The notes below the pieces were generated by a model. It was not told the DNA's origin. It ran no database searches and saw only the letters and a program-made list of their open reading frames with translations. A stretch of DNA of 64,000 nucleotides from Candidatus Magasanikbacteria bacterium RIFOXYC2_FULL_42_28 (GTDB taxonomy: Bacteria > Patescibacteriota > Patescibacteriia > Magasanikbacterales > GWA2-37-8). Made by a program: the position numbers and the translations under genes. How positions within the stretch are numbered: the first letter of the stretch is position 1; each line of letters starts with the position of its first letter. Below, in pieces: positions 9,807 to 58,810 of the stretch. Location of the stretch: the NCBI GenBank assembly GCA_001784435.1, contig MFQZ01000010.1, positions 169,960-233,959 of the forward strand, given 5' to 3'.

Positions 9807-9899
9807 AAAACCTTTTAAGCATCCTTAAAAGGTTTTGTAAAAATAGGGTATGGCAGACGCGATTAGATACTTGACAGCGATGTGGTTAAATGTTACAAT
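9807..9899 (+). promoter_or_regulatory. copy 1 of palindrome+promoter element: aaaaccttttaag-catc-cttaaaaggtttt inverted repeat followed by TTGACA-N17-TACAAT
   Basis: Inverted repeat at 9807-9838; -35 TTGACA at 9871-9876 and -10 TACAAT at 9894-9899, read directly. Related copies at 11341 and 13074. Confidence 0.5.
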
Positions 9900-11340: not shown

Positions 11341-11451
11341 TTTTAAGTACATTTAAAAGGTTTTGAAAAAATAGGGGAGTTTTTGGGCATAAAGAGTTAT
11401 CCACAGAGGTAGTTTGACATTTTTAACTGTTTTAAGTATACTTAAAACATA
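11341..11451 (+). promoter_or_regulatory. copy 2 of palindrome+promoter element (degenerate palindrome, TTATCCACAG box, TTGACA-N17-TATACT, palindromic ttttaagtatacttaaaa over the -10)
   Basis: TTATCCACAG at 11397-11406, -35 at 11414-11419, -10 at 11437-11442. The perfect palindrome ttttaagtatacttaaaa at 11431-11448 is a candidate operator. Confidence 0.5.
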
Positions 11452-11477
11452 GCATAAAAATATGAAATGTTTTAAGT

Positions 11478-12692
11478 ATGTTTAAAGAATATATCAAAAG
11501 AGAGGTTTATGTTAATAAAATTCGTCCTTTTATCGGCAAGGATATTATTAAGGTTTTAGTTGGCCATAGACGGGTCGGTAAGAGTTATTTGTTGTATCAG
11601 ATAATGGATGAAGTCAAAAACCAAGATTCAAAAATAGAGATTGTGTATATTAATAAGGAGTTAAATGATTTTGCCGATATTGTTGATCATCAGAGCTTGC
11701 TTAAATATATTGATTTAAAAAAAAATAAAAATAGTGGCGGAAAAACCGCGCTATTTATCGACGAAGTGCAGGACATTATTAATTTTGAAAAGGCCCTGCG
11801 TCACCTAAACGCCTCCGGGCAGTTTGATATTTATTGTACAGGCAGTAATGCTAAATTGTTATCAGGCGAGTTGGCGACTTTTTTGTCCGGTCGGTATATA
11901 GAAGTTGAAGTGCGCGGTTTGTCGTACAATGAATTCTTGGAATTTCATAAATTGGCAAAAGGTAAAGAATCTCTATTTCGTTATATTAAATATGGCGGTT
12001 TACCATATTTAATTAATTTACCACCGGAAGACGATGCCGTGTATGATTATTTGCGCAACATTTATAACACTATCGTTTTAAAAGATGTGGTCGAGCGTTT
12101 TAGATTAAGGAATGTAAATTTGCTGGAAAGATTGATTGAATATCTTGCGGATAATGTTGGTAGTTTGGTTTCAGCCAATAATATCAGTGATTTTTTAAAA
12201 TCGCAAAAAATTAAAATTTCACCGAATACCATTTTAAATTATCTGTCATATTTGGCGGCGAGTTATTTTATTTATAAAGTTCCGCGGCTAGATATTGTGG
12301 GAAAGAAAATTTTTGAGGTTAATGATAAATTTTATTTTGAGGATTTAGGATTAAGGCATGTGGTGGTTAATTACAAACAATCGGATATTAATAAAATTTT
12401 AGAAAATTTAGTGTTTTCGCATTTGAAATATATTGGTTATGAGGTTAAGGTCGGCCAATTGGGCCAGCAGGAAATTGATTTTGTAGCAAGCCGGGGTGAG
12501 GCGCGGGTTTATGTGCAAGTGGCTTACTTGCTAAATAGCGAGGCGGTCAAGCAACGAGAGTTTGGCAATTTATTAAAAATTGATGATAATTATAAAAAAA
12601 TAGTGGTGAGTATGGATGATTTTGGCGGGGGGAATGTTAGCGGTATCGAGCAGTGGAATGTCGTAGATTTTTTATGTGATTTTCTCGGGTAG
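11478..12692 (+). CDS. second AAA+ ATPase of the COG1373/DUF4143 type (Walker A GHRRVGKS, Walker B LFIDEVQ)
   Basis: Motifs in the translation; paralogous architecture to the 9933 gene. Confidence 0.6.
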   Translation: MFKEYIKREVYVNKIRPFIGKDIIKVLVGHRRVGKSYLLYQIMDEVKNQDSKIEIVYINKELNDFADIVDHQSLLKYIDLKKNKNSGGKTALFIDEVQDIINFEKALRHLNASGQFDIYCTGSNAKLLSGELATFLSGRYIEVEVRGLSYNEFLEFHKLAKGKESLFRYIKYGGLPYLINLPPEDDAVYDYLRNIYNTIVLKDVVERFRLRNVNLLERLIEYLADNVGSLVSANNISDFLKSQKIKISPNTILNYLSYLAASYFIYKVPRLDIVGKKIFEVNDKFYFEDLGLRHVVVNYKQSDINKILENLVFSHLKYIGYEVKVGQLGQQEIDFVASRGEARVYVQVAYLLNSEAVKQREFGNLLKIDDNYKKIVVSMDDFGGGNVSGIEQWNVVDFLCDFLG

Positions 12693-13075: not shown

Positions 13076-13178
13076 AACCTTTTAAGCACCCTTAAAAGGT
13101 TTTGTAAAAATAGGGGAAATTTTAAGTATAAAGTTATCCACAGCACCGTTTGACTTATCAGTGTTATTTTGGTAAATT
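13074..13178 (+). promoter_or_regulatory. copy 3 of palindrome+promoter element (perfect aaaaccttttaag-cacc-cttaaaaggtttt, TTATCCACAG, TTGACT-N17-TAAATT)
   Basis: Palindrome at 13074-13105; TTATCCACAG at 13134-13143; -35 at 13150-13155. Confidence 0.5.
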
Positions 13179-13197
13179 AGCACAATATACTAATTTT

Positions 13198-13782
13198 ATG
13201 AAATGGATTGATTTTGAGAAAAGTATTAAAGATAAAGATATTAAGTTATTTACACCGCGCGATGTAAGTGTTTTTTTGGGTCGCTCAACAATTGCTGTGC
13301 GATTTTTAATGCATCGCCTAAAACAAAACGGACAAATTATGGGGGTTAAGCGCGGTCTTTATAAATTATCCGGTCAACTCGTACCTGATTATTATTTGGC
13401 TAATAGAATTTACGCTCCCTCCTATATTTCTTTAGAATCGGCGTTGTCATATTATGGTGTTATTCCGGAAACCGTATATGAAATTACGTCAGTAACTTCT
13501 AAAATTACTCGTCGTTTTGAAACCGCCGGAAAAATTTTTTCTTATCATAAAATTAAACAATCTGCTTTTACCGGTTATGGTATAGCGCACCAAGACGGAG
13601 CAAATTTTTATTTGGCTGACGCGGAAAAAGCGTTTATAGATGTGTGTTATCTGCGGTTATTGGCGGGCCGAGAGTCGATATCTCGTTTTGACAAAACAAA
13701 GCTTAATAAGGAGAAAACTTTAAGTTATGCTGATTTGTATAAAAATAAAAAATTAGTTGCGACTATTCGTAAATTATTATGA
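13198..13782 (+). CDS. abiEi: AbiEi-like antitoxin/transcriptional regulator (type IV TA, COG5340-like)
   Basis: About 195 aa with an N-terminal wHTH-like region and SLESALSYYGVI segment. It overlaps the downstream AbiEii-like gene by 4 nt. Start taken at 13198, downstream of the promoter; the track gives TTG at 13150. Confidence 0.5.
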   Translation: MKWIDFEKSIKDKDIKLFTPRDVSVFLGRSTIAVRFLMHRLKQNGQIMGVKRGLYKLSGQLVPDYYLANRIYAPSYISLESALSYYGVIPETVYEITSVTSKITRRFETAGKIFSYHKIKQSAFTGYGIAHQDGANFYLADAEKAFIDVCYLRLLAGRESISRFDKTKLNKEKTLSYADLYKNKKLVATIRKLL

Positions 13783-14540
13783 TTACCAAAGATTATATTG
13801 AGAAATTAGCAAAGCTTGGCCATGTTGCAACATTTCCAAATATCGCGAGAGAGTATTTTCAGCATGTTTTTTTGTCAAATTTAAGTCAGATTCCTGGTGG
13901 GGAAAAGTTATTGTTTAAGGGTGGTACGGCCTTGCGAATAGTTTATGGTAGTCCGCGTTTTTCCGAAGATTTAGACTTTTCTTTGTTCGGCGTCTCGCAC
14001 TCGCTCGTTAATAAATTTGTGGAAGATATTTTTCTGAAGATTTTATCTGAAATTGAAAGGACTGGGATTAAGGTTGAATTGGGTAAAAAAAGCGGAGAAA
14101 CAAGCGGCGGATATTTTGGTGTGGCATCGTTTCGGTTCTATGATTATCCTTTGATTGGCGTTGAGATCAATGTATCCGCGCGAGGAACCAAGCAGTTGGC
14201 CGGGGAAGCAGATAGTATCGTTAGCGATTTTGCGCCGGCGTATTCGTTATTGCATTTACCGCAAATTGTTTTGGTTGAAGAAAAAATATTTGGCGCTTTA
14301 CTGGAACGCAAAAAACCACGTGATTTTTATGATTTGTATTTTATTATGCGCAAAGGAATGCTAACGAATGAGCAGAAACAGCGATTATCAACGGTCAAAA
14401 ATAAAATAATCGCGAGTGCCAAGAAGATCGATTTTCGATATGAACTCGGTGTTTTTTTACCTTCTGACCAGCAATTGATTGTACGGGATTTTTCAGCAGT
14501 TTTAGAGCGGGAGTTAAATAGACAATTAGCAAAAATCTGA
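13779..14540 (+). CDS. abiEii: AbiEii-like nucleotidyltransferase toxin (DUF1814 family)
   Basis: N-terminal LLFKGGTALRIVYGSPRFSEDLDFS matches the family's conserved GGTAL / RFSEDxDF signature as I recall it. Size about 250 aa; operon overlap with the upstream antitoxin. Confidence 0.65.
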   Translation: MITKDYIEKLAKLGHVATFPNIAREYFQHVFLSNLSQIPGGEKLLFKGGTALRIVYGSPRFSEDLDFSLFGVSHSLVNKFVEDIFLKILSEIERTGIKVELGKKSGETSGGYFGVASFRFYDYPLIGVEINVSARGTKQLAGEADSIVSDFAPAYSLLHLPQIVLVEEKIFGALLERKKPRDFYDLYFIMRKGMLTNEQKQRLSTVKNKIIASAKKIDFRYELGVFLPSDQQLIVRDFSAVLERELNRQLAKI

Positions 14541-14618
14541 TGATTTTATAATTTTTGCAATTAAGTAAAATAATATTCGCACCGGCACCAAATATTTGAT
14601 TAGGTAATTGCGTCTATT

Positions 14619-15665
14619 TTGTGGTATAATATACCTATGGACAATAATACCAAACAACCAACAATTTTAGTCAAAAAATCCGACGGCACCTTCGCGCGGA
14701 TGTCTTTGGGGGAGATAAAAAAGATGAAAGTGGGTAAAATTACAGCACCGTCGTCTGTCATCCTGAATGAAATGAAGGATCCCTTGAAGTTGGCAGTAAG
14801 GGATTCTTCGGTCGCTACGCTTCCTCAGAATGACAATAACAAAAAAGTCGGAATGACAGGTAAAGACGCCAAGTCGCTTTTAGAAGAAGACAAATTGGTA
14901 GCCCCGGGCACGAGCGTTGCCGTTGGCCGAAATAATCAGGTGGACACGGTAATTAAAAAACTATCATTTTCCGTCGCGTCTAATTTTTTCAATCGTTTGC
15001 GGAGCGCGATTCAGTTGCGTTTAAAAGATGTACGCGGGGAAAAAGAAACACGCGCCACGGTGTTGCGTTCTATAAAAGACGGGGGACTGGGCTTGACTGA
15101 AACCCAAGCCAACGAATTGGAGCAAGTGTGCGCGACGGTGGGTAATTTATTGGCGCGACCACCGGCTAAAAGTAAAACTGATTTAATGGTTGAAGATCAA
15201 ATTTTACCGCAAACGTTTCACAAAATGCCTGTGCCGGCGAAAATGGCTCCACATAACGCGTTTGTGCATGAGGAATTTTTAAAAAAAGAAGAAAAATTTA
15301 AAATTAGTCCAGTGGCTGTTAGCCGACCGGCGATGAAGGATGTGGTTGCCGCCGCCGCGCCGGTCGGGCCGGTGGAGGAAATTAAATTTTTTACCCTAAC
15401 TGATTTTCGGCGTTTGGCCCAAGACCCTAACCAAGCCACCAAACGTTTGGCGCAAAAATTTATTAATTTGCGTGAAGAATCAGTTTTGTTATTTTGGCAG
15501 GCCTTGGATGCCTGGAAGCAAAGCCCGTTATTTGCCGACTATGTTGGTGTATTAAATCGAGTTTTTATCGGTAAAGTCGCGTCTGATCAGCAAAAAACGA
15601 GTGACCAGATAACCGATGTTGAGATAAAGGCGCTTATCGCGATGGAAAAAGATTTGGTAATCTGA
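14619..15665 (+). CDS. hypothetical protein (348 aa); its promoter and 5' end are duplicated upstream of the AbiE cassette
   Basis: ORF only; no motif recognised. Confidence 0.4.
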   Translation: MWYNIPMDNNTKQPTILVKKSDGTFARMSLGEIKKMKVGKITAPSSVILNEMKDPLKLAVRDSSVATLPQNDNNKKVGMTGKDAKSLLEEDKLVAPGTSVAVGRNNQVDTVIKKLSFSVASNFFNRLRSAIQLRLKDVRGEKETRATVLRSIKDGGLGLTETQANELEQVCATVGNLLARPPAKSKTDLMVEDQILPQTFHKMPVPAKMAPHNAFVHEEFLKKEEKFKISPVAVSRPAMKDVVAAAAPVGPVEEIKFFTLTDFRRLAQDPNQATKRLAQKFINLREESVLLFWQALDAWKQSPLFADYVGVLNRVFIGKVASDQQKTSDQITDVEIKALIAMEKDLVI

Positions 15666-15677
15666 TATAATAATGTT

Positions 15678-16106
15678 ATGGAGCAATTTACCGTCCCACA
15701 ATTTTTAGATGTTGAAGATAAAATTTTTGGCCCGATTACCACGCGCCAATTTGTGATTTTGCTCGCCACCGGTTTATTTCTGTTTATTGCTTACAAATTG
15801 GCTGATTTTGCGTTGTTTATCACTCTGTTCGTATTTATTGGCGGATTTGCCGTAATTTTGGCGTTTGTTAAAATTAACGGCCAGACCTTCCATTATTTTT
15901 TACTGAATATAATTCAAACCATGCGTCGCCCCAGCCGCCGGTTGTGGCAGAAACGTTATACCGACCAAGAATTAAAAGCAATGGCCGCCGGACCGAAAAA
16001 AGAAATGTTAGAGGCGCCGTCTCCTATTCCCAATCTTTCCAATAGCCGCATTCGCGCCTTGTCGCTCGTCGTTAATACCGGTGGATATTTTAAATATGAA
16101 GAATAA
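15678..16106 (+). CDS. small 2-TM membrane protein, PrgI/VirB3-like candidate
   Basis: 142 aa with two hydrophobic helices (LLATGLFLFIAYKL..., LFITLFVFIGGFAVILAFV). Sits immediately upstream of a VirB4-like ATPase, as PrgI/TcpE do in Gram-positive T4SS. Assignment is by context and architecture. Confidence 0.35.
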   Translation: MEQFTVPQFLDVEDKIFGPITTRQFVILLATGLFLFIAYKLADFALFITLFVFIGGFAVILAFVKINGQTFHYFLLNIIQTMRRPSRRLWQKRYTDQELKAMAAGPKKEMLEAPSPIPNLSNSRIRALSLVVNTGGYFKYEE

Positions 16107-16782
16107 AGCTGTCGCCAAAAAGAAAGTCGCTTTGATATCCGCGCAAAAACATTTGTTTATCGCGGAAATTAAGCAAGATACGGTGATTTTAAAAGACGGC
16201 ACTTTGCGCGCGGTTTTAATGGTGTCCAGTTTGAACTTTGCGTTGAAAAATGAAGACGAGCAAACCGCGATTGTCTCATCGTATGTTGGCTTTTTAAATT
16301 CACTTGATCATCCTTTGCAAATTTTAATTCAGTCACGCGAACTTTATATTAAACCGTATTTAGACGATTTAGCCAAACATGAACATGAACAAACTAACGA
16401 ACTATTGCGCACGCAAATCGCCGATTATCGGTCATTTGTGTCGGAGTTGGTTGAGCTCGGACAAATTACCAGCAAACAATTTTATGTGGTTGTGCCCTAT
16501 GATCCTTTGAGTAATAAAAAACGCAGTTTTTGGTCGCGGGCACAGGAAGTATTGAATCCGATTTCGGCCGTAAAATTAAAAGATGAGAAATTTTTACAAC
16601 GCAAATATGATTTAGATCAGCGAGTGCGTTTGGTAGAGTCAGGGTTGTCCAGTATGGGGTTGGAAGTGAAACGGCTTGATACCCAAACTTTGATTGAATT
16701 GTATTTTTCGTCGTATAATCCGGATATTGCTTTAAGTGAACATTTGCCGGAAATTAATAAAATTCAGGTAGAAGAAGAATAG
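16081..16782 (+). CDS. hypothetical soluble protein in the T4SS-like operon (possibly a split-off N-terminal VirB4 domain)
   Basis: Overlaps the upstream gene and ends 1 nt before the ATPase gene. The VirB4-like ATPase downstream lacks the long N-terminal domain of canonical VirB4. Confidence 0.3.
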   Translation: MDILNMKNKAVAKKKVALISAQKHLFIAEIKQDTVILKDGTLRAVLMVSSLNFALKNEDEQTAIVSSYVGFLNSLDHPLQILIQSRELYIKPYLDDLAKHEHEQTNELLRTQIADYRSFVSELVELGQITSKQFYVVVPYDPLSNKKRSFWSRAQEVLNPISAVKLKDEKFLQRKYDLDQRVRLVESGLSSMGLEVKRLDTQTLIELYFSSYNPDIALSEHLPEINKIQVEEE

Positions 16783-16783
16783 T

Positions 16784-18646
16784 ATGGCCTTCAAACCAGT
16801 ATTCACCAATAAACCGGCGCTAGATAAAGCCAAAATTGCTCTGGAGCAAAAGACCGAAGCGGAGTTGATTACGCTTGAAGAAGAGCGGATTTATCGCGAG
16901 GGCGTGGTTTCAATTAAGGATTTAATTGCTCCGGCGGCTTTTAATGTTGAAAAAGATCATTTGGAATTGGGCACGACATATTGCCGCACCATGTTTATTG
17001 TCAGTTACCCACGTTATATCAGCGTCGGTTGGAGCTCGCCGGTAATAAATTTGTCCGTCAATATGGACATCACCATGTTCTTTTATCCGGTTAAATCAGC
17101 TATTATTTTGAAACAGTTAAGAAATAAAACCGGCGCTTTGCAAGCTCAAATTACCGCTGATTCGGAAAAGGGCGCCCCGCGCGACCCACTCCGTGAAACG
17201 GCTTTGCGCGATGTGGAAGAATTACGCGACAGTTTGACGCAGGGCACGGAACATTTTTTTCAATTTGCTTTTTACGTTACGATTTATACCCAAGACAAAA
17301 CCCGTTTGGATCAATTGTCCGAAGATATCGAAAACATGTTCGGCAGTAAATTAATTACGAGTCGTAAAGTTTTATACCAAGCCGAACAGGGTTTTAATTC
17401 TACCTTACCGCTTTGCAATGACGAACTGATGATCGCGTTCAACATGAATTCCAGTCCGATCGCCGCTTCCTTTCCGTTTATTTCGGCCGAACTTACCTCG
17501 GATGATGGTATTTTATACGGCATTAATCGCCACAACAACAGTTTGATTTTGTTTGACCGGTTTTCGCTTCAAAACGCCAATATGGTGGTGTTTGCCACTT
17601 CCGGCGCGGGTAAAAGCTATGCCATCAAATTGGAAATTTTGCGCTCGATGATGCTTGGCGTGGAAGTGATTGTGATTGATCCGGAAATGGAATATAAACA
17701 TTTGTCCGACGCGGTGGGTGGGACTTACATTAATATTTCGCTTTCGTCAGAAAGTAAAATCAATCCTTTTGATTTGCCACGGCCACGCGAACGCGACACG
17801 CCCGTGTCTGATATTATTCGGGGCGCGGTTATCACTGTCAAAGGTTTGCTTCGGATTATGTTGGGCGGTTTTACTACTCAAGAGGACTCCATTATTGACC
17901 GCGCTTTGATTGAAACCTACGCCAAAAAAGATATTACGCCGGAAGCGGATCTGTCGGCTGTCAAACCACCGATAATGCAGGATTTGCAAGAAATTTTAGA
18001 AGGCATGACCGGCGCGGATGAATTGGTTTTAAAATTGCAAAAATATACCGAAGGCACTTTTGCCGGGTTATTTAATTCGCCCACGAATGTTGACACTAAA
18101 AATCAATTAGTGGTATTTTCCGTGCGTGATTTGGAAGATGAATTGCGCCCGATGGCGATTTACGCCATTGTTAATTACATTTGGAATACGGTGCGGTCGG
18201 AGCGTAAAAAACGTTTGTTAATTATTGACGAGGCCTGGTGGCTCATGATGCACGAAGACAGCGCTCGTTTTATTCACGCGCTGGTTAAACGTTGTCGCAA
18301 ATATTTTTTGGGTGTTACAACCATTACCCAAGATGTGAATGACTTTTTGGGTTCTAAATACGGACAGGCGATTGTTACTAACTCGGCTTTGCAGTTGCTT
18401 TTGCGTCAATCGCCCGCGGCTATTGATAACATTCAAAAAACATTTTTGCTTACGGACAGCGAAAAATATCTGTTGCTGGAATCAGGTCCGGGTGAGGGGA
18501 TATTTTTTGCTGGCTTGAAACACGCGGCGATAAAAGTGGTGGCGTCGTATACCGAAGATCAAATAGTTACCACTAATCCGGAACAGTTATTACAAATTGA
18601 ACAGTCCAAAAAAGAATTTGAACAGATGAATAAAATTCCGAGTTAA
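16784..18646 (+). CDS. VirB4/TraC/PrgJ-like conjugative/T4SS ATPase
   Basis: Walker A FATSGAGKSY and Walker B RLLIIDEAWWL in the translation. The C-terminal ATPase domain arrangement is typical of the VirB4 family. Confidence 0.6.
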   Translation: MAFKPVFTNKPALDKAKIALEQKTEAELITLEEERIYREGVVSIKDLIAPAAFNVEKDHLELGTTYCRTMFIVSYPRYISVGWSSPVINLSVNMDITMFFYPVKSAIILKQLRNKTGALQAQITADSEKGAPRDPLRETALRDVEELRDSLTQGTEHFFQFAFYVTIYTQDKTRLDQLSEDIENMFGSKLITSRKVLYQAEQGFNSTLPLCNDELMIAFNMNSSPIAASFPFISAELTSDDGILYGINRHNNSLILFDRFSLQNANMVVFATSGAGKSYAIKLEILRSMMLGVEVIVIDPEMEYKHLSDAVGGTYINISLSSESKINPFDLPRPRERDTPVSDIIRGAVITVKGLLRIMLGGFTTQEDSIIDRALIETYAKKDITPEADLSAVKPPIMQDLQEILEGMTGADELVLKLQKYTEGTFAGLFNSPTNVDTKNQLVVFSVRDLEDELRPMAIYAIVNYIWNTVRSERKKRLLIIDEAWWLMMHEDSARFIHALVKRCRKYFLGVTTITQDVNDFLGSKYGQAIVTNSALQLLLRQSPAAIDNIQKTFLLTDSEKYLLLESGPGEGIFFAGLKHAAIKVVASYTEDQIVTTNPEQLLQIEQSKKEFEQMNKIPS

Positions 18647-20049: not shown

Positions 20050-20143
20050 GGAGAGGTGGCTGAGCGGTCGAAAGCGGCAGGTTGCTAACCTGTTATACGG
20101 TTGTAAAGCCGTATCGAGGGTTCAAATCCCTCCCTCTCCGCCA
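20050..20143 (+). tRNA. tRNA-Ser (anticodon GCU)
   Basis: Cloverleaf folded by hand: acceptor GGAGAGG/CCTCTCC, anticodon loop TTGCTAA, long variable arm, T-loop TTCAAAT, encoded CCA. Confidence 0.8.
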
Positions 20144-22397: not shown

Positions 22398-22425
22398 TTG
22401 ACATATTTTTTAAACCTGATATAAT
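22398..22425 (+). promoter_or_regulatory. sigma70-like promoter TTGACA-N16-TATAAT for rplJ-rplL
   Basis: Hexamers read directly. Confidence 0.5.
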
Positions 22426-22434
22426 GCTTTTAAC

Positions 22435-22651
22435 CATAGACAGCAGGGGCTCAAAAAGCTTAATCATCCTGCCGAGGTGCAAAAGTGATTTATCACTTCA
22501 ATTGTCGATTTGCGCTTATAGGTCTGTGGAAAACACAGATTTTTTATTTACTGGCTTGAAAATTTTGATCCGCCTCGGGCGGAGAAAAAATTTTCACTAG
22601 CAGTAATTATCCCGGCCTTGGCCGGGATAATCCATAGTAATATAGGATAGT
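22435..22651 (+). promoter_or_regulatory. long structured 5' leader of rplJ (L10-leader-like autoregulatory region)
   Basis: Hairpins ctgtggaaaacacag, ccgcctcgggcgg and ttatcccggccttggccgggataa directly upstream of rplJ. The L10(L12)4 complex is known to regulate via such leaders. Confidence 0.45.
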
Positions 22652-27075: not shown

Positions 27076-28560
27076 ATGCTTTCTAATTATCAGCGCTATC
27101 GGTTATACGAAATTTTACCAGGGGCTTCTATTTGGGCGACTTTGATTATTAGTGTTGTTTTGTCATTTGTCAAACCACTCTGGATGATTTACGCGGTGCT
27201 GGTATTTGACGTTTATTGGGTTTTGCGCGTGGCTTATTTTAGTTTGTATTTGATATTATCTTGGCGGCGATTTCGACGGGCACTCCAAATTGATTGGTTC
27301 GCGAAGCTCGGCGCTACTTTTCCTAATTGGGAAAAACGTCAGAATGTTATTTTTTTACCACTGTATAATGAAGATTGGCCGGTAGTTGACGAGACCTTAA
27401 AAGCGCTGTCTGCTTCCACTTATCCGGCGGGAAAATTGTTTGTGGTTATTTCCGGCGAGGCACGCCAACAAGCGCATTGGGATAAAATTCAGATTTTAAT
27501 TAACAATAATTACGCGGGCCAGTTTGCCGATTTGATTTTTTATACTCACCCGGATGGTTTAATAAATGAAATACCGGGCAAAGGTTCTAATATCCATTTT
27601 GCCGAGAAAGAATTTAAGAAATACGCCGATAGTCGCGGTTGGCAATATGGCGATATAGTCGTTTCGGTTTTTGACATTGATACCGTGGTCCATCCGCAGT
27701 ATTTCGCTCACCTCACTTTTCTATACTGCTCTCACCCCAATCCCGCCAAGAGCTCTTTTCAGCCGGTAACTTTATATAATAATAATTTGTGGGAGTCGCC
27801 TTCAATTCTGCGCGTGATGGCGTTTGGCACTACTTTTTGGATGCTTTTTTCCGTGGCGCGTTTGGATAATCTGGTCACTTTTTCTTCGCACAGCATGAGT
27901 TTTCAGGCGATTGTTGATTGTGGCGGACACGCGGCTGATATTGTGAGCGAGGACTCGCGCATATTTTATCAATGTTGGTTAAAAAATAATGGCAACTACG
28001 AAGTAACGCCGATGTATATTCCGGTTTCGATGGATACCGTGCGCGCCGATAATTGGTTCAAAAGTTTAAAAAATTTATATTTGCAACAACGGCGTTGGGC
28101 GTGGGGAGCGGAAAATATCCCGTATCTTTTGTACCAGTTTAAAAAGCACCAAGAAATTCCTTGGTTTAAAAAGTTTATAATTTTATTTCACGAATGGGAA
28201 GGTAAGTGGAGTTGGGCGGTCGTTACAATTTTGATTACGGTTTTGGGGCGATTACCACTCTGGCTCGCGAGTGATGATGTTAGACGGAGCGCTTTATTTT
28301 TTAATACCCCGTATGTTTTGGAAAGTTTGATGACCATTGCCATGCTTGGGTTATTGATTTCCGCCGCGATGGGGATGTTGTTATTACCGCCCCGTCCCGT
28401 TCATCACGGCCACCACAAATATTTGTTTATGTTGGCGCAATGGCTATTGGTGCCGGTTTCACTTATTTTGTTTTCCGCGTGGCCCTGTTTGGATGCTGTT
28501 ACGCACCTAATGTTTGGCAAGTATTTGGGGTTCAATGTTTCCCAAAAGAGCCGGGCGTGA
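27076..28560 (+). CDS. GT2-family processive glycosyltransferase (cellulose/chitin-synthase-like) with flanking TM helices
   Basis: QQRRW motif (LQQRRWAWG) and N- and C-terminal hydrophobic helices in the translation. Confidence 0.6.
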   Translation: MLSNYQRYRLYEILPGASIWATLIISVVLSFVKPLWMIYAVLVFDVYWVLRVAYFSLYLILSWRRFRRALQIDWFAKLGATFPNWEKRQNVIFLPLYNEDWPVVDETLKALSASTYPAGKLFVVISGEARQQAHWDKIQILINNNYAGQFADLIFYTHPDGLINEIPGKGSNIHFAEKEFKKYADSRGWQYGDIVVSVFDIDTVVHPQYFAHLTFLYCSHPNPAKSSFQPVTLYNNNLWESPSILRVMAFGTTFWMLFSVARLDNLVTFSSHSMSFQAIVDCGGHAADIVSEDSRIFYQCWLKNNGNYEVTPMYIPVSMDTVRADNWFKSLKNLYLQQRRWAWGAENIPYLLYQFKKHQEIPWFKKFIILFHEWEGKWSWAVVTILITVLGRLPLWLASDDVRRSALFFNTPYVLESLMTIAMLGLLISAAMGMLLLPPRPVHHGHHKYLFMLAQWLLVPVSLILFSAWPCLDAVTHLMFGKYLGFNVSQKSRA

Positions 28561-28577
28561 TATGATATTGAGGTGAT

Positions 28578-28700
28578 AATGTCAAATTTCCAATTTCCAA
28601 TGTCAAATCAAGCCCAAAATCCAAAACCCAAATTACAAATTGACATTTGAGCTTTGATCTTGATTTGAAATTGGAAATTTGGATTTTGAAATTTTAAGTT
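28578..28700. repeat. MITE-like intergenic element, family A copy 1 (terminal inverted repeats tcaaatttccaatttccaa / ttggaaatttggattttga)
   Basis: Second copy at 32293-32402 sharing about 30 nt at each end. Core atttgagctttga is shared with family B. Confidence 0.7.
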
Positions 28701-28705
28701 TAATT

Positions 28706-31120: not shown

Positions 31121-31157
31121 TCTCCGCCATAGGCGGACCCGCCTCTGGCGGGAAAAT
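31121..31157 (+). terminator. twin GC-rich hairpins (ccgccataggcgg, cccgcctctggcggg) after mreB
   Basis: GC hairpins in AT-rich context; weak T-run. The same cccgcctcgggcggg motif recurs at 22570 and 34585. Confidence 0.35.
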
Positions 31158-31168
31158 TACAATGCATT

Positions 31169-32263
31169 ATGGTCATTGGGATAGAAGCCAGCCATGCTGT
31201 TAAACTGCCGCGCACCGGCGTAGAAGAAGCGTGCTGGCAAATGATTGAAAATCTCAAATCAACTCTACCGGCGGACACGCGGGTTATTTTGTATTCACAT
31301 ATTTTACCGACCGATCAGTTGAAAGATTTACCGCCGAACTGGAAGTGGAAAATTTTAAATTGGCCGTTGAAAAAATTATGGAGTCAATTACGATTATCTT
31401 ATGAATTATTTAAAAATCCACCTGATATATTTTTCGCGCTCGGACAACTTTTGCCGTTTTTTTTACCAAAAAAAATTAAAGTAGTCACTTTTGTGCATGA
31501 CAGCGCGTTTGAGGCCGAACCCGAAGTGTATAGTTTTTTAGGGAAAATTTATTTGAAATTAATGAATCGCCGCATCACGCGCCGAAGCGATAAAATTATC
31601 ACTTCCACCGAATTTAATAAACAAGAATTACAAAAGTATTATGGAGTAGCGTCGGAAAAAACTATCGTCGTCCCGCTCGCGTATGATAAAAATGTTTTTT
31701 GTATAGGCTCGGTAGTAACACTGTCGGTAATTTCTAAACCATATTTTATTTTTCTTGGTCGTTTGGAAGAAAAAAAGAATACTCCACTTTTGGTGCGCGC
31801 GTTTAATCAAGTCCGGCACGATGGTGTTGATTGCCAATTATTGTTAATCGGCAAGCCCGGCCATGGATTTGAACAAGTTCAATTTGGAATTGAAAATAGT
31901 CCATACCAAAACGACATCATTCGCCCCGGCTATGTTGATACCAAAGATTTGCCCGGCATAATTCGCGGAGCGCGCGCGCTAATTTTACCATCGCGCTACG
32001 AAGGTTTTGGCATGCCAATTTTGGAAGGAATGGCTTGTGGCACGCCGGTAATCGCGAGTGATATTCTGGCTTTACGAGAGGTTGGGGGAGATGCTGTGGC
32101 CTATATTCGCCCTACAGTGCCTGATTTGGCGACGATAATGGCCACGGCGGTGAAAGATTCCATTTGGCGACAAAACCACATCCAGGCCGGTTTAGAACAG
32201 GTTAAAAATTTCAGTTGGGTCAAAACTTCCGCTAAAATTGGCCAAGTGATTGCCAATATTTGA
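31169..32263 (+). CDS. GT4 (GT1-fold) glycosyltransferase
   Basis: C-terminal EGFGMPILEGMACGTPVIASD motif typical of GT4 retaining glycosyltransferases. Confidence 0.7.
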   Translation: MVIGIEASHAVKLPRTGVEEACWQMIENLKSTLPADTRVILYSHILPTDQLKDLPPNWKWKILNWPLKKLWSQLRLSYELFKNPPDIFFALGQLLPFFLPKKIKVVTFVHDSAFEAEPEVYSFLGKIYLKLMNRRITRRSDKIITSTEFNKQELQKYYGVASEKTIVVPLAYDKNVFCIGSVVTLSVISKPYFIFLGRLEEKKNTPLLVRAFNQVRHDGVDCQLLLIGKPGHGFEQVQFGIENSPYQNDIIRPGYVDTKDLPGIIRGARALILPSRYEGFGMPILEGMACGTPVIASDILALREVGGDAVAYIRPTVPDLATIMATAVKDSIWRQNHIQAGLEQVKNFSWVKTSAKIGQVIANI

Positions 32264-32292
32264 TATTTTTGTTATACTAACTGGTGTAAATA

Positions 32293-32402
32293 ATGTCCAA
32301 TTTCCAATTTCCAATGTCAAATCAATGTCAAAGCTCAAACGTTAAATTTGATATTTGGATTTTGGATTTGATTTGACATTGGTAATTTGGATTTTGACAT
32401 TA
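32293..32402. repeat. MITE-like intergenic element, family A copy 2
   Basis: aatgtccaatttccaatttccaatgtcaaatcaa ... ttggtaatttggattttgacatt; see the 28578 copy. Confidence 0.7.
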
Positions 32403-32446
32403 TCAAAATTATTGATAGCTATTTTGATAATAGCAGACATTACGTT

Positions 32447-33361
32447 ATGTGCAATTTTATTGGTAATACCAAAATTCACCAGTATTTTTCTAAAATTGAT
32501 GGTAATAGTCAACTTGGTCATGCTTATGGATTTGCCGGATTAAATCAGGTGGGCAAACTCACTTTGGCAAAAATTGCCGCCGCGAAATTGTTGGGCGTCA
32601 CAATAGAAAAATTAGCGAGTAGTCCGGATTTTTATTTTGTGGAACGAGCTGTTGATGAAAAAACCGGTAAATTAAAACAAGACATTTCCGTTGAACAAGC
32701 GCGTGATGTCAAAGATATTTTGTTGCGCCGGCCGTGGTTAGGCGGATATCAAGTTGTAATAATTGACGAGATTGAACATTTGAATAAGGCCTCGGCCAAT
32801 TCCTTGTTAAAATTTTTAGAAGAACCGGCCAGTAAGAGTATTATTTTTATTATTACCGAAGACGAAAGTAAATTATTGCCGACCGTGCGTTCGCGGTGCC
32901 AATGGTGGCGGTTTAATCCGGTGGCGGAAGCGGAAATTGCGACTGGATTGCGTGAGCGCGGTATTGACGCGAGTGTCGCGAGCGAAGTTGCGGTTTTGGC
33001 CTCGGGACGGCCGGGGCGCGCTTTGGATTTGGCGCAGAGTCCGGAAAAATTAGCGTTAATTAAAGCCGAAGTGGTTCGTTACGAGAATTTGCGAATTGCG
33101 CCGGTACACGAACGATTTAAAACCATAGAAAGTTTAGCCGGAGAAAAAAAGGGTGCTACGCGTGGTAAAGATGAGTTAGATGAAATTTTACAAATTTGGA
33201 CAACGATAGAGCGAAAAAAAATGTTGCTCGCGATCGGGGCGTCTCAAAACCAATCTGTTAAAGTAATTGACGGTCTGACCAAATTACGCGAGTATTTAGG
33301 GAAGAATATTCATCCGCGTTTAGCGTTAGAAGAATTCTCATTAAATTTACCAATTAATTAA
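32447..33361 (+). CDS. holB: DNA polymerase III delta' subunit
   Basis: AAA+ clamp-loader motifs GHAYGFAGLNQVGK and TVRSRCQ. Start taken at the ATG 32447, because the track start lies inside the repeat element. Confidence 0.7.
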   Translation: MCNFIGNTKIHQYFSKIDGNSQLGHAYGFAGLNQVGKLTLAKIAAAKLLGVTIEKLASSPDFYFVERAVDEKTGKLKQDISVEQARDVKDILLRRPWLGGYQVVIIDEIEHLNKASANSLLKFLEEPASKSIIFIITEDESKLLPTVRSRCQWWRFNPVAEAEIATGLRERGIDASVASEVAVLASGRPGRALDLAQSPEKLALIKAEVVRYENLRIAPVHERFKTIESLAGEKKGATRGKDELDEILQIWTTIERKKMLLAIGASQNQSVKVIDGLTKLREYLGKNIHPRLALEEFSLNLPIN

Positions 33362-33365
33362 ATAT

Positions 33366-33480
33366 TAAATTCTAAACTCTAAATTCTAAACAAATCCAAA
33401 AATTAAAATTCAAATACTAAAATTTGAGCTTTGAAAAATTTGAACTTGTTTAGAGTTTAGAAATTAGAGTTTAGAATTTT
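33366..33480. repeat. MITE-like intergenic element, family B copy 1 (TIRs aaattctaaactctaaattctaaacaa / ttgtttagagtttagaaattagagtttagaattt)
   Basis: Second copy at 58118-58236. Central atttgagctttga core is shared with family A. Confidence 0.7.
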
Positions 33481-39935: not shown

Positions 39936-40008
39936 GCCGATGTAGCTCAGTTGGTAGAGCACCTCCATGGTAAGGAGGTGGTCAGCGGTTCAAATCCGCT
40001 CATCGGCT
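39936..40008 (+). tRNA. tRNA-Thr (anticodon GGU)
   Basis: Hand-folded: acceptor GCCGATG/CATCGGC, anticodon loop ATGGTAA, T-loop TTCAAAT; no encoded CCA. Confidence 0.7.
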
Positions 40009-40017
40009 CGGAGTATT

Positions 40018-40093
40018 GCCGTCTTAGCTCAGTTGGTAGAGCAACGGTTTTGTAAACCGTAGGTCCAGGGTTCAAATCCCTGAGACGGCTCCA
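40018..40093 (+). tRNA. tRNA-Thr (anticodon UGU)
   Basis: Acceptor GCCGTCT/AGACGGC, anticodon loop TTTGTAA, encoded CCA. Confidence 0.7.
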
Positions 40094-40113
40094 GTCGGCA
40101 TTAGTTCTTTAAT

Positions 40114-40195
40114 GGGCAGGTACCGAAGCGGTCAAACGGGGTAGACTGTAAATCTACTGGCTCTGCCTTCCAAGGTTCGAATCCTTGCCTGCCCA
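40114..40195 (+). tRNA. tRNA-Tyr (anticodon GUA)
   Basis: Acceptor GGGCAGG/CCTGCCC, anticodon loop CTGTAAA, long variable arm, T-loop TTCGAAT. Confidence 0.65.
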
Positions 40196-41238: not shown

Positions 41239-41309
41239 AGGGGGTTCGTATAATGGTAGTACGTTGCTCTCCAAAAGCAAACGCGCGGGTTCGATTCCTG
41301 CACCCCCTG
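41239..41309 (+). tRNA. tRNA-Trp (anticodon CCA)
   Basis: Acceptor AGGGGGT/ACCCCCT, anticodon loop CTCCAAA, T-loop TTCGATT. Confidence 0.65.
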
Positions 41310-48370: not shown

Positions 48371-51300
48371 ATGAATTATATTAAAATTATGAAAAATGAT
48401 TTGGTAAATGAATACATAAAATCAATCACCGAAAAATATCAGTCCGGCCAAGCCAAAGAACATGCCTATCGTCCGGCATTACAAAAATTGTTTACCGACA
48501 TTACCGGTCTGAATGTCATCAACGATCCCAAACGAAGCGAATACGGCGCGCCGGATTTTTTGTTTATGAAAGGAAAAGTCGCCGCCGCTTACGCCGAAGC
48601 CAAAGATATTGGCGTATCGCTTGACGAAACCGAAAAAGGCGAACAACTTGCTCGCTATTTTGGCTATTCCAATTTAATTTTAACCGACTGTTTAGAGTTT
48701 AGATTTTTTCGTAATGGGCAAAAATATGAGGCGGTAAAAATTGCCGAAATTAAAAATGGCGAAATAGTCGCTGACGAAAACAATTTCGCGCATTTGGAAG
48801 ATACCATAAAAGAATTTATCAATGAAGCCAAAGAGCCGATAAAATCCGGTGCGGTGCTCGCTAAAGTGATGGCTGGCAAAGCGCGTCGTATTCGCGATAA
48901 TATCAAGAAATTTTTACATGACGGGGACACGCAAACCAATGAGAGTTTGTTGTCGGTGTATAATGTGATAAAAAAATTGTTGCTGGCCGATTTGGATTAT
49001 GACAAATTTGCCGATATGTACGCGCAAACAGTCGTGTATGGATTATTCGCGGCGCGTTATCATGATGAAACGCCCGACACTTTTTCCCGCCAAGAAGCGC
49101 GCGATTTGGTGCCGGTTTCAAATCCATTTTTGAGGCACTTTTTTGACCATGTGGCCGGACCGTCTTTTGACAAGCGCATTGAGTTTATTGTCAACGAACT
49201 TTGTGAGGAATTTGTCCACGCCGATGTGCAGGCGATTGTTCATGATTATTACAAAGTGGAAAAAGACGATAGCCGTGATCCGATTATTCATTTTTATGAA
49301 GATTTTTTGCAAGAATATGATTCGGCGGAACGCAAAAAGATGGGCGTATTTTATACTCCCTTACCGGTAGTGCGTTTTATCGTGCGCGCGTTAGATGATG
49401 TTCTCAAAAAAGAGTTTGGTTTAAATGGTCTGGCGGATTCTGCTAAAATTGAAATTAATAGTGTGAGCCAAGGCAAAAAGTTTAAACAGAGCGTTCACAA
49501 AGTTCAAATTTTGGATCCGGCCACCGGCACCGGAACATTTTTGAATGAAGTTATTTCGCATATTAAAAAATCTTTTGACGGCCAAGAAGGCCGTTGGGCG
49601 AATTACGCGCGCGAAGAATTATTGCCGCGTTTGCACGGGTTTGAAATTATGATGGCGTCATACACGATTGCCCATCTTAAACTGACGACTACGCTTAAAG
49701 AAAGTGGCGTAGATATTAACAGGGGGCGACTCGGAGTATATCTTACCAATAGTTTGGAAAAAGCTGAAAGCTACGATGATACTTTATTCGCAGGTTTAGG
49801 TTTGGGGCAGGCGATTACCGATGAGTCCATCGCGGCGAATAAAGTAAAAAATGATTTGCCAATTATGGTGGTGTTAGGGAACCCGCCGTATAATGTTAGT
49901 TCGCAAAATAAAGGCGAGTGGATTGGCGAGCTGATAAAAGATTATAAAAAAGATTTAAATGAGAGAAATATTCAACCTCTGTCGGATGATTATATTAAAT
50001 TTATTCGTTTTTCACAGTATCTGATAGATAAAAATGGCGAGGGAGTTATCGGGATGATAACCAACAATTCGTATATAGACGGCATTACCCACCGGCAAAT
50101 GCGCAAGTCGCTGTTAGAATCGTTTGACAGTATTTATATCTTGGATTTACATGGTAATGCCAAGAAAAAAGAAGTCGCGCCGGATGGTAGCGCCGATCAA
50201 AATGTATTTAGTATTATGCAAGGCGTATCCATCGCAATTTTTGTGAAAAAATCCGCCAAGAAAAAAACGCTCGGTGTGGTTTATCACGCCGAAATGTTTG
50301 GTAAACAAAAAAATAAATATGAAGCGTTAGATAATTCTGATTTTGAGAAAATGAAGTGGAACAAGATTAAGTATGAAGCGCCGTATTATTTCTTTGTGCC
50401 CAAGGATTTTGGGGCGAGCGAAGAATATGAAAGCGGATTTAAGTTAGACGATTTCTTTAGTATAAAGGCAGCGGGAATTAAAACTCATCACGATGATATT
50501 GTGATTGCATTTTCTGAAGATAATCTTAAAAAACAGATTTTGAATTATTGTGATAGCTCTAATTTCATATTTGATGTTGAAAAAATTAAAAAAATTTGTT
50601 ATAGGCCATTCGACGAGAGATTTTTGTATTATGACACAAAGATTGTCGTAAGACATAGAAAGGAGCAAATGAAACACTCTTTTTATTCTAATTTATCTCT
50701 TTTGGCTGGTAGGCAATCAAAATCAGATCAAATAAGTCATTTTTTTATTACCAATTTATTGTCTGAAATGAAAACAGCGGAAAGTACTACTGGATCTTAT
50801 CATTTTCCACTTTATCTCTACGCTGACGACGGCACCAAAATCCCAAATCTTAAAAAAGAAATCGTCCAAGAAATAGAGAAAATTACCGGCCCGATAACGC
50901 CAGAAAATATTTTGGATTATATTTACGCGGTTTTACACAGTCCTAATTATCGCGAAAAATATAAGGAGTTTTTAAAAATAGATTTTCCGCGCGTGCCGTA
51001 TCCAAAAGACAAAAATCAATTTTTTGCGTTAGCTAAGTTAGGCGAAGAATTACGCTATCTGCATCTGTTAGAAAGTCCAAAAGTAAATAGTTTTATTACC
51101 ACTTATCCGGTGGTGGGGGACAATATGGTAGAAAAAATTATTTACGAAAACGAAAAAGTATTTATCAATAAAACCCAATACTTTGGCGGTGTGCCCAAAT
51201 TGGCCTGGGATTTTTACATAGGTGGCTATCAGCCAGCTCAAAAATGGCTCAAAGACCGCAAAGGCCGAAAACTTACCAATGCTGATATAGAGCATTATCA

Positions 51301-51373
51301 AAAAATTATTGTGGTGTTGGTGGAAACGGGGCGGATCATGGGAGAGATTGATGGCGTGGGATTGATATTTTAA
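48371..51373 (+). CDS. single-chain Type IIL/IIG restriction-modification enzyme, MmeI-like (N-terminal PD-ExK nuclease plus gamma-class N6-adenine methyltransferase plus TRD)
   Basis: N-terminal D...EAK nuclease motif (PDFLF...AEAKD), methyltransferase motif I ILDPATGTGTFL and motif IV NPPY (VVLGNPPYN). 1000 aa. Confidence 0.6.
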   Translation: MNYIKIMKNDLVNEYIKSITEKYQSGQAKEHAYRPALQKLFTDITGLNVINDPKRSEYGAPDFLFMKGKVAAAYAEAKDIGVSLDETEKGEQLARYFGYSNLILTDCLEFRFFRNGQKYEAVKIAEIKNGEIVADENNFAHLEDTIKEFINEAKEPIKSGAVLAKVMAGKARRIRDNIKKFLHDGDTQTNESLLSVYNVIKKLLLADLDYDKFADMYAQTVVYGLFAARYHDETPDTFSRQEARDLVPVSNPFLRHFFDHVAGPSFDKRIEFIVNELCEEFVHADVQAIVHDYYKVEKDDSRDPIIHFYEDFLQEYDSAERKKMGVFYTPLPVVRFIVRALDDVLKKEFGLNGLADSAKIEINSVSQGKKFKQSVHKVQILDPATGTGTFLNEVISHIKKSFDGQEGRWANYAREELLPRLHGFEIMMASYTIAHLKLTTTLKESGVDINRGRLGVYLTNSLEKAESYDDTLFAGLGLGQAITDESIAANKVKNDLPIMVVLGNPPYNVSSQNKGEWIGELIKDYKKDLNERNIQPLSDDYIKFIRFSQYLIDKNGEGVIGMITNNSYIDGITHRQMRKSLLESFDSIYILDLHGNAKKKEVAPDGSADQNVFSIMQGVSIAIFVKKSAKKKTLGVVYHAEMFGKQKNKYEALDNSDFEKMKWNKIKYEAPYYFFVPKDFGASEEYESGFKLDDFFSIKAAGIKTHHDDIVIAFSEDNLKKQILNYCDSSNFIFDVEKIKKICYRPFDERFLYYDTKIVVRHRKEQMKHSFYSNLSLLAGRQSKSDQISHFFITNLLSEMKTAESTTGSYHFPLYLYADDGTKIPNLKKEIVQEIEKITGPITPENILDYIYAVLHSPNYREKYKEFLKIDFPRVPYPKDKNQFFALAKLGEELRYLHLLESPKVNSFITTYPVVGDNMVEKIIYENEKVFINKTQYFGGVPKLAWDFYIGGYQPAQKWLKDRKGRKLTNADIEHYQKIIVVLVETGRIMGEIDGVGLIF

Positions 51374-58110: not shown

Positions 58111-58117
58111 GTTAAAA

Positions 58118-58236
58118 CTATAAATACTAAACTCTAAATTCTAAACAAATTCAAATTATTCAAATCCAAAATTTAAACATTTGAATTTTATGTTTTGAAC
58201 TTGTTTAGAGTTTAGTATTTCGTGTTTAGTATTTAA
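58118..58236. repeat. MITE-like intergenic element, family B copy 2
   Basis: aaactctaaattctaaacaaat ... gaacttgtttagagtttag matches the 33366 copy. Confidence 0.7.
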
Positions 58237-58246
58237 AATTAAGTAT

Positions 58247-58810
58247 ATGTCCAAACTATTAACAATATTTTCTGTCGGTGCAATTTTGGTTTTTACTTCC
58301 GGCTGTGGCAATACAAAACAACCAGACAACAACACTGCGCCAACTGATTTTACCGCGCGTCGAAATGTTTCTACCACACCGTTTGGCGCGGATTTTCCTA
58401 TTGGCACGACCACTGATTTGGCAATTGGTAAAAAAGTTATGGTGGTGGGTTCGGCTGGGTCAGATGGAATTGTCAGCGCCGCGCAAATTGTGGTTGGTGA
58501 ATTTAATTTTGGTATGGGTTTTGACGGTGCTCGATTCGCGACCGACACACCGACCGGACAACAAAGGCAGCGTCCAAATTTTAACGGCCAAGGTGGTGGC
58601 GGCCAAGGTGGTGGAAATTTCGCCGGACGAGCAGGCGACAGTAGGGGAATGACGCGAGTAGTTGGCGAAATTATCAAAATGGACAATACCAGTTTGGTGG
58701 TAAAAACCAATGATGGTGGCTCAAAAATCGTTTTTTATTCAGCAAATGTCAAGATTTTGCTGCCACCCATCGCGATTACGCCTGTGAAAACTGCCAGCAC
58801 TACGCCATAA
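58247..58810 (+). CDS. Gly-rich lipoprotein, function unknown
   Basis: Signal peptide with lipobox FTSGC; GQGGGGQGGGNFAGRAGD low-complexity stretch. Confidence 0.45.
   Translation: MSKLLTIFSVGAILVFTSGCGNTKQPDNNTAPTDFTARRNVSTTPFGADFPIGTTTDLAIGKKVMVVGSAGSDGIVSAAQIVVGEFNFGMGFDGARFATDTPTGQQRQRPNFNGQGGGGQGGGNFAGRAGDSRGMTRVVGEIIKMDNTSLVVKTNDGGSKIVFYSANVKILLPPIAITPVKTASTTP

Follow-up and report, generated by a model that had tools for sequence, protein, structure and literature searches.

Gene-less heptamer hairpins in a Candidatus Magasanikbacteria chromosome as probable derivatives of a small PF05635 cassette

Two copies of a short repeat lie in narrow intergenic spaces of a Candidatus Magasanikbacteria (CPR/Patescibacteria) chromosome, from an uncultivated organism of groundwater, and the question raised by this locus is what kind of element they represent and how they came to be there. 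A preliminary description of the stretch of DNA analysed here (64 kb, referred to as the window) had reported two copies with common ends that are inverted repeats of each other, and had proposed for them either a non-autonomous mobile element of the MITE type or a structured terminator or insulator. The repeat is present as claimed: the 27-mer AATTTCCAATTTCCAATGTCAAATCAA has two exact occurrences in the 64-kb window, at 28585 and 32299, both on the + strand, and none of 100 shuffles of the window gave a match (0/100). The two copies, here called A1 and A2 (family A; Table 1), are identical over 27 nt at the left end and conserved at the right end.

Table 1. Features of the window, with spacer lengths at three junctions compared with relatives (positions refer to the window).
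Feature	Position	Strand	Description
Empty site for the gene-bearing form	16782-16784	+	1-nt spacer between TraC-like and VirB4-like genes
Promoter-like site before A1	28539-28566	+	TTCCCA-16-TATGAT with TG extension; ends 11 nt before A1
A1 (family A copy 1)	28578-28693	+	116-nt ORF-less stem-loop; left arm 28578-28634, right arm 28637-28693
Vestigial reading frame, A1 left arm	28579-28650	+	MSNFQFPMSNQAQNPKPKLQIDI, then stop; 23 codons; matches the PF05635 N-terminus without the domain
Promoter-like site before A2	32250-32278	+	TTGCCA-17-TATACT with TG extension; ends 13 nt before A2
A2 (family A copy 2)	32292-32401	+	110-nt ORF-less stem-loop; arms 32290-32346 and 32347-32403
Vestigial reading frame, A2	32293-32376	+	MSNFQFPMSNQCQSSNVKFDIWILDLI, then stop; 27 codons; matches the PF05635 N-terminus
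Family B copy 1 (B1)	33360-33479	+	takes up the holB-to-BNR spacer, with overlap of the holB stop codon; units AAATTCT / AAACTCT
Family B copy 2	58101-58248	+	between a macB/ftsX-type permease gene (stop 58110) and a 187-aa ORF (ATG 58247)
Spacer, 494-aa gene to DUF4012			15-23 nt in relatives; 145 nt in the window (A1)
Spacer, GT4 to holB			39-44 nt in relatives; 183 nt in the window (A2)
Spacer, holB to BNR			17-57 nt in relatives; 133 nt in the window (family B copy 1)

Both copies are imperfect palindromes. The arms of A2 are 75% complementary, and those of A1 are 72% complementary when taken over 28567-28634 and 28637-28704, i.e., the extent of 28567-28704 that is reached with the weak pairing added by the flanks; in both copies the terminal inverted repeats form an extended stem with arms of 57-68 nt. 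The left arms of family A are composed of 7-nt units (AATGTCA, AATTTCC and AAATCCA) and the right arms of their complements, and in A1 as in A2 Tandem Repeats Finder detects arrays of period 7 in each arm. Two further hairpins of the window (family B) have the same architecture with another heptamer vocabulary, again as period-7 arrays detected by Tandem Repeats Finder. In all four hairpins the 5' arm is free of G and the 3' arm free of C on the + strand, and each of the four is situated between co-directional + strand genes. Folding of the full elements, suggested in the preliminary description, bears out their structured character: predicted RNA folds of the window hairpins have z-scores of -4.5 to -8.1 relative to shuffles on either strand, with both A1 and A2 well beyond the shuffles, and the antisense strand of A1 folds better than its sense strand. 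A search of the elements against Rfam returned sub-threshold matches only (22-30 bits against thresholds of 64-102), namely to eukaryotic miRNA precursor models, i.e., generic long hairpins; a known Rfam family was rejected on this ground, with no match reaching the gathering threshold. TIGR or CRISPR-like arrays were also considered and discarded, there being no tandem array and no associated gene nearby.

The genes around the hairpins are, in order, that for a 494-aa protein, [A1], DUF4012, mreB, a GT4 glycosyltransferase gene, [A2], holB, [B1], the gene for a BNR-repeat protein and frr. The holB product has 100% identity to a protein attributed to Candidatus Magasanikbacteria bacterium RIFOXYC2_FULL_42. 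It had been observed earlier that the starts of the genes downstream of A1 and A2 fall inside the elements in the ORF track. Such starts do exist, as TTG 28679 and TTG 32387 in the right arms, but both are artefacts, the real starts being ATG 28706 and ATG 32447 according to public gene calls and to N-terminal alignment with orthologues. Immediately upstream of the elements are promoter-like sites (Table 1), which are consensus matches only, of a sort that occurs at chance frequency across the region. A TTTTGnTAT(A/T) motif lies upstream of A2 and is retained at the matching position in the relatives L017-L020 (L numbers denote the loci compared). Because these promoter-like extended -10 sites are located just upstream, A1 and A2 would belong to 5' leaders and not to operon ends; if the predicted promoters are real, both elements would stand at the very start of those leaders. 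An outward promoter arising from the TTGACA words of the right arms was looked for by eye and set aside, with no suitably spaced -10 site. Both A1 and A2 have a Shine-Dalgarno-like motif upstream of the ATG of the element; among 35 copies such a motif was seen in 7, compared to 3 of 35 at the mirrored position and a background of 16%, which is not convincing.

Several other features of the window were recorded. The mreB-to-GT4 spacer carries two adjacent short G+C-rich hairpins at 31121-31150, TCCGCCATAGGCGGA and CCCGCCTCTGGCGGG, and in the relative L019 the same spacer carries instead a different, heptamer-like A/T-rich hairpin, AAGATTAAGGAATGAAGATTG...CAATCTTCATTCTTTAATCTT. Four copies of a 54-nt repeat (TTTTAAGnnnnnTTAAAAGGTTTTGnAAAAATAGGG...; 9813-9866, 11341-11394, 11430-11483 and 13080-13133) lie near the two AAA_14/DUF4143 ATPase genes and the ORFs that come after them; the repeat could represent a promoter or operator that is shared, or else the scar of a duplication. 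At 1965-2069, within a 129-aa ORF (1884-2273), there are approximately 3.5-4 copies of a 21-nt tandem repeat (AAATCCGATGTGGCCATCTTG), which is in frame and is therefore a coding repeat. The cluster at 13779-18646, in which PrgI, TraC-like and VirB4-like (DUF87/TraG) genes come after a gene with an AbiEii toxin domain, is type IV secretion/conjugation-like. A gene for a 1000-aa restriction-modification protein of the MmeI/Eco57I type occupies 48371-51373. The L10 leader upstream of rplJ (22416-22554) is ordinary, as are the five tRNA genes, of which three are clustered (39936-40195; 20050-20140; 41239-41309).

To what extent the hairpins belong to the chromosome's ancestral layout can be judged from syntenic relatives, whose HolB proteins share 57-71% and whose DUF4012 proteins share 55-71% identity with those of the window. 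A1 is missing from the orthologous spacer in L107 and L108, A2 is missing from L017-L020 and L108, and the extra spacer length in the window equals the length of the element at A1, A2 and B1. Since syntenic relatives are without them, A1, A2 and family B copy 1 are insertions, and the insertion polymorphism that was to be anticipated for the mobile element originally proposed is thereby found, in the form of empty sites in relatives. Target-site duplication, another mark that the preliminary description had named, did not appear: there was none in a direct-repeat check of the flanks of 35 hairpin copies, and none at the three window junctions compared with empty sites, where the relatives are 55-71% identical in protein and a duplication of 1-2 nt is possible. 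In an independent short-read assembly, the contig L002 (Logan contig SRR2090171_46085) terminates within A2, in its left arm, a break of the sort that a dispersed repeat would be expected to cause.

The family is indeed dispersed, as had been supposed, with its termini present in many CPR genomes and in metagenomes and not as two copies alone. The 27-mer was found in 14 loci of GTDB representative genomes, with record titles that include Moraniibacteriota, Falkowbacteria, Kuenenbacteria, Magasanikbacteria, Saccharibacteria and unclassified Patescibacteria, and its 22-mer core in at least 79 metagenome loci, many of them from groundwater; the family A 22-mer was absent from viral contigs. Short hairpins of 81-278 nt account for 35 of the 74 distinct copies, and several more score just below the cut-off. 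The right ends are conserved across loci (e.g., TTGGAAATTTGGATTTTGACATT) and do not complement the left end exactly, and the repetition of this asymmetry between loci argues for common descent over independent growth of simple repeats. With respect to neighbouring genes, 13 copies are co-directional, approximately 6 are opposite and 4 lie between convergent genes, so that orientation is biased and not fixed.

Some copies of the left-end sequence are not part of short hairpins. At L048/L060 and L011/L032, they face each other at a distance of 430-530 nt with one ORF between them, and this ORF starts within the arm, which reads A-ATG-TCA-AAT-TTC-CAA-TTT-CCA-ATG-TCA-AAT-CAA, i.e., MSNFQFPMSNQ. 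The encoded protein matches the Pfam family PF05635, "23S rRNA-intervening sequence protein" (E = 2e-15), and TIGR02436, "four helix bundle protein" (E = 6e-21). PF05635 genes are enclosed by the arms in L048/L060, L011/L032, L056, L068, L010, L067 and L109. Imperfect inverted arms of 40-125 nt, most of them 40-78 nt and with heptamer-like units, surround 9 of the 10 distinct PF05635 genes examined; the tenth, in L033, shows a weak 24-nt arm match only. The arm-flanked cassettes measure 427 nt in L109 and 455-611 nt elsewhere, and the full cassette can be described as a unit of approximately 430-610 nt with arms of approximately 40-70 nt and a gene for a protein of the four-helix-bundle type, 120-135 aa long (S23p, Avd family), whose start codon and first 17-20 codons are provided by the left arm. 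Among 5.8 billion proteins searched, 4708 relatives had E <= 1e-10. Of these, the 120 best mostly begin with M[ST]N[DF][KQ]FPM[ST]NQxQNPNxK.KYDL, i.e., the arm encoded by the heptamers, and their named sources are Moranbacteria, Magasanikbacteria, Falkowbacteria and Parcubacteria, together with one Dehalococcoidales and one Candidatus Subteraquimicrobiales MAG. In the approximately 700 kb of arm-carrying loci, PF05635 is the only recurrent cargo between paired arms (spacing approximately 410-530 nt), and no larger cargo or transposase was found between them. Neither the window nor any of 12 loci with a cassette gave an rRNA match. PF05635, reverse transcriptase, transposase and RNase III genes were sought in the 64-kb window and none was found. 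In the searchable literature, of which coverage is incomplete, we found no description of PF05635 cassettes or of their hairpin derivatives outside rRNA.

Exact family A arms and a cassette were also encountered in L006, L010, L011 and L016, from CAYHHR01 and CAZXFD01, two MAGs titled 'uncultured Gammaproteobacteria bacterium'. These carriers represent either a real spread beyond CPR or mis-binned or mis-labelled contigs. In L007, L009, L028, L058, L081 and L090, unrelated hairpin repeats, e.g., of the gtcatcc...ggatgac type and G+C-rich palindromes, are inserted at the apex of family A hairpins, and in L048 (12529-13139) the cassette itself is contained in a larger weak inverted repeat. By analogy with the tips of rRNA helices, the apex inserts suggest that hairpin tips may be preferred, or best-tolerated, insertion sites.

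The relation of the window hairpins to these cassettes can be read from direct alignment. Positions 1-54 of A2 align to positions 1-54 of the L060 cassette and positions 55-110 to positions 417-472, with 86% identity, and the 362-nt gap in this alignment corresponds to the ORF core. Because A2 aligns end to end with the cassette except for the ORF core, the window copies are arm joined to arm without the gene. The ends of A1 likewise align to the ends of PF05635 cassettes, and by these alignments both ends of A1 and A2 are homologous to the ends of gene-bearing cassettes. In the short hairpins, the frame MSNFQFPMSNQxQ..N.K is retained by the left arms over a median of 23 codons, and vestigial frames of this kind are seen in A1 and A2 (Table 1). 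Taken together, we consider it probable that A1 and A2 were derived, as ORF-less forms, from a small selfish cassette of the IVS type (IVS, intervening sequence) that bears a PF05635 gene and is widespread in CPR/Patescibacteria outside rRNA. The derivation could have run either way: a cassette may have lost its ORF, or a hairpin that already existed may have acquired one. The non-autonomous mobile element of the preliminary description is thus upheld in one respect, a larger element with matching ends having the gene that the hairpins lack, but not in the other, as the partner encodes PF05635 and not a transposase.

The gene-bearing form is itself missing from the window at a site where a relative has it. 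In L109, a Magasanikbacteria contig, the 427-nt PF05635 cassette sits exactly at the junction of TraC-like and VirB4-like genes, and its ends are of the family A type (AATTCCAAATTTCCAATTCCCAATGCC... and ...TTGGAAATTAGGATTTTGACATT). The flanking proteins are 72% and 83% identical to the products of the window genes 16081-16782 and 16784-18646, between which the window has the empty site listed in Table 1. The gene-bearing cassette is therefore insertion-polymorphic within the same lineage. The same contig carries a second, divergent PF05635 gene (89-463), of which the start is not in an arm and the inverted arms of approximately 31 nt consist of GATATTG/GATATTA; from this gene it is seen that the arm vocabulary varies among cassettes.

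Family B probably has the same origin, i.e., its hairpins are likewise ORF-less derivatives of such a cassette. They contain stop codons in all six frames, and for this reason their arm, unlike that of family A, cannot encode an N-terminus. Similar hairpins are found in L037/L047 and twice in L051, and none of the PF05635 genes among the loci examined is flanked by family B arms. In viral contigs, the family B 20-mer belongs to plain direct heptamer arrays or to coding sequence, with no hairpin.

We further analyzed the short hairpins for signals at the level of RNA. In 22 of 30 short hairpins, the RNA of the sense strand is predicted to fold more stably than that of the antisense strand (mean difference -3.0 kcal/mol; Wilcoxon p = 0.008), and the sense strand has more G-U pairs than the antisense strand. 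This bias in predicted folding is a weak indication of constraint on the hairpins at the RNA level. For co-evolution of the arms, pairing of each arm with its own partner was no better than pairing with the arms of other elements (inner segment, p = 0.92; overall, p = 0.83), and selection on the stem consequently receives no support from compensatory change; the outer 31 nt taken alone showed a small own-partner excess (19.7 compared to 19.0; p = 0.003).

Three other readings of the hairpins were weighed. If they were classical MITEs, a transposase of the DDE or another type, encoded elsewhere, would recognise the heptamer inverted repeats and move the hairpins as well as the PF05635 versions, in which the PF05635 gene would be a passenger. 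Their heptamer-built ends resemble the multiple short repeats of transposon ends. Such repeats in transposon ends are typical transposase-binding sites. The hairpins are also small and non-coding with terminal inverted repeats, are present in several copies per genome and as a family in many lineages, and occupy orthologous sites in one genome that are empty in another. Against a transposase of this kind stand the lack of target-site duplication at the 35 hairpin copies and the three compared window junctions, the status of PF05635 as sole recurrent cargo with no transposase-sized element in the approximately 700 kb of arm-carrying loci, and the Pfam annotations of the window genes, which include no transposase; we regard this reading as unlikely. 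Independent expansion of slippage-prone A/T-rich heptamer arrays at many sites, i.e., a coincidence of low-complexity sequence, would accommodate the varying number of heptamers between copies and the plain direct arrays, without hairpin, in which the family B 20-mer occurs in viral contigs. It would leave without explanation that the exact 27-mer, the conserved and non-identical right end and the ordered heptamers recur in dozens of loci with the same layout, that the window shuffles never gave a match, and that the hairpin ends align with cassette ends across both arms, and we give it hardly any credence.

The alternative in which the hairpins are regulatory structures of the host, i.e., a terminator or attenuator, an mRNA stabiliser or a translational control in the 5' leader, has to be reconciled with relatives in which the genes and the -10 motif are retained and the hairpins are missing, and with identical ends of 27-34 nt in different CPR classes, where the neighbouring genes are unrelated. 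Several facts would suit such a role: every hairpin is intergenic and fills the space from stop to start, a promoter-like -10 site precedes A1 and A2 with the start codon after them, the stems are predicted to be stable, and folding of the sense strand is favoured. Yet the elements occur in both orientations relative to their neighbours, and the sequence of the arm is explained as the coding N-terminus of another gene family. As for a terminator or insulator, the second proposal of the preliminary description, no stem that is rich in G+C and joined to a T-run is seen in the elements, terminator-like matches fall in none of them, and this proposal is without support; an intrinsic terminator was rejected in particular, the stems being A/T-rich and approximately 50 bp long with no overlapping terminator-like site. 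A regulatory function for the host is accordingly improbable in our estimation.

On the preferred reading, that of ORF-less derivatives of PF05635 cassettes, a course of events can be proposed in which the elements would be co-transcribed with host genes, A1 and A2 probably within 5' leaders, and the transcript would fold into an A/U-rich stem of roughly 45-50 bp. The stem would extrude from the transcript and the flanking signals would stay adjacent, and RNase III may cut the stem, either clipping the element out or cutting the leader, as in rRNA IVSs. Stem extrusion and RNase III cleavage of this kind are proposed as the reason why insertions in spacers of 15-45 nt near promoters and starts are tolerated, in the way that the tips of rRNA helices tolerate IVSs. 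Stems of this sort are a natural RNase III substrate. Correia elements can be co-transcribed and fold into RNase III-sensitive hairpins.

What moves the cassettes is a separate matter. The IVSs of 23S rRNA have been known for >30 years, with their origin and the role of S23p unexplained; older ideas are that they are remnants of transposition and that the ORF encodes a component of mobility (PMC4990558). Avd, the accessory protein of diversity-generating retroelements, belongs to PF05635 (PMC10053308). We raise, tentatively and as rather doubtful, the idea that the Avd-like PF05635 protein could be the mobility factor of self-propagating cassettes beyond rRNA, with the ORF-less hairpins as its non-autonomous passengers. 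The protein might then bind the RNA or DNA of the stem and recruit a polymerase or a reverse transcriptase, like Avd in diversity-generating retroelements. If true, this would give a common function to the rRNA IVSs and to the large "four helix bundle protein" family.

The finding that the same kind of element occupies ordinary intergenic spacers of CPR, is polymorphic between close relatives and leaves gene-less hairpins behind would turn the IVS into one of the habitats open to a general mobile cassette, and it supplies many natural pairs of occupied and empty sites in which cassette movement can be studied. In practical terms, ORF tracks acquire false upstream start codons from the hairpins and short-read assemblies break in them, and the hairpins would put RNA stems of roughly 50 bp into the leaders of essential genes, e.g., holB.

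Among known systems, bacterial MITEs (Correia/NEMIS, RUP, Nezha; PMC3184786, PMC10969869) are like the window elements in being small, non-coding, intergenic, multi-copy and insertion-polymorphic with inverted repeats; the window elements differ by the lack of target-site duplication and by a larger partner that encodes a four-helix-bundle protein and not a transposase. REP/REPIN sequences with RAYT (PMC3116915, PMC3733652) share with them the extragenic palindromic hairpin and the lack of target-site duplication. REPs are 20-40 nt long and G+C-rich, have GTAG or CGTC heads and are associated with a Y1 transposase (PMC3116915, PMC3733652), and a REP/REPIN identity was rejected, given that the window elements are A/T-rich, 110-116 nt long and without GTAG/CGTC heads, and that the window Pfam annotations include no Y1 transposase domain. 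The cyanobacterial STRR and the TAACTGA repeats of Beggiatoaceae (PMC4679880) are likewise intergenic arrays of 7-nt units found across distant lineages. Compared by description, these are direct tandem arrays of other words, whereas the window elements are paired inverted arms, and the passages of PMC4679880 on STRR/TAACTGA report no link to PF05635.

The nearest parallels come from rRNA. The short ORF-less IVSs of 23S rRNA (Salmonella, Yersinia, Campylobacter; PMC4990558) are gene-less extended stem-loops on a scale of roughly 100 nt, as the window elements are, and they are tolerated as the stem extrudes and RNase III removes it (PMC4990558). The likeness is one of description: the 23S IVSs replace the tetraloops of rRNA helices, and the window elements are in mRNA leaders or spacers. 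The ORF-containing IVS of Coxiella burnetii, in helix 45 of 23S rRNA, is a 428-nt selfish element with inverted repeats that form a stem cleaved by RNase III and with two or three tandem heptamers (GACAGAT) directly before the start of S23p; its ORF is decaying in some strains, and AuQ01 has a 176-bp deletion in it (PMC4990558). Relative to the ORF-containing IVSs of Coxiella and Leptospira, the window copies and the cassettes lie between protein genes and not in rRNA helices 9, 25 or 45, and the window copies are without the whole ORF core, which makes them derivatives and not full members. The heptamer words are AATGTCA / AATTTCC here and GACAGAT in Coxiella, translation of the arm in the CPR cassettes, unlike in Coxiella, yields the N-terminus of the protein, and excision by RNase III is reported for the Coxiella IVS and proposed for the window elements. 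What the two have in common is an inverted-repeat stem with heptamers of the 5' arm at the ORF start, both of which are found in A1 and A2, a PF05635 (S23p, four-helix-bundle) ORF in the loop of the CPR cassettes, an ORF that is dispensable or decaying in some copies, and a sporadic distribution that suggests horizontal transfer.
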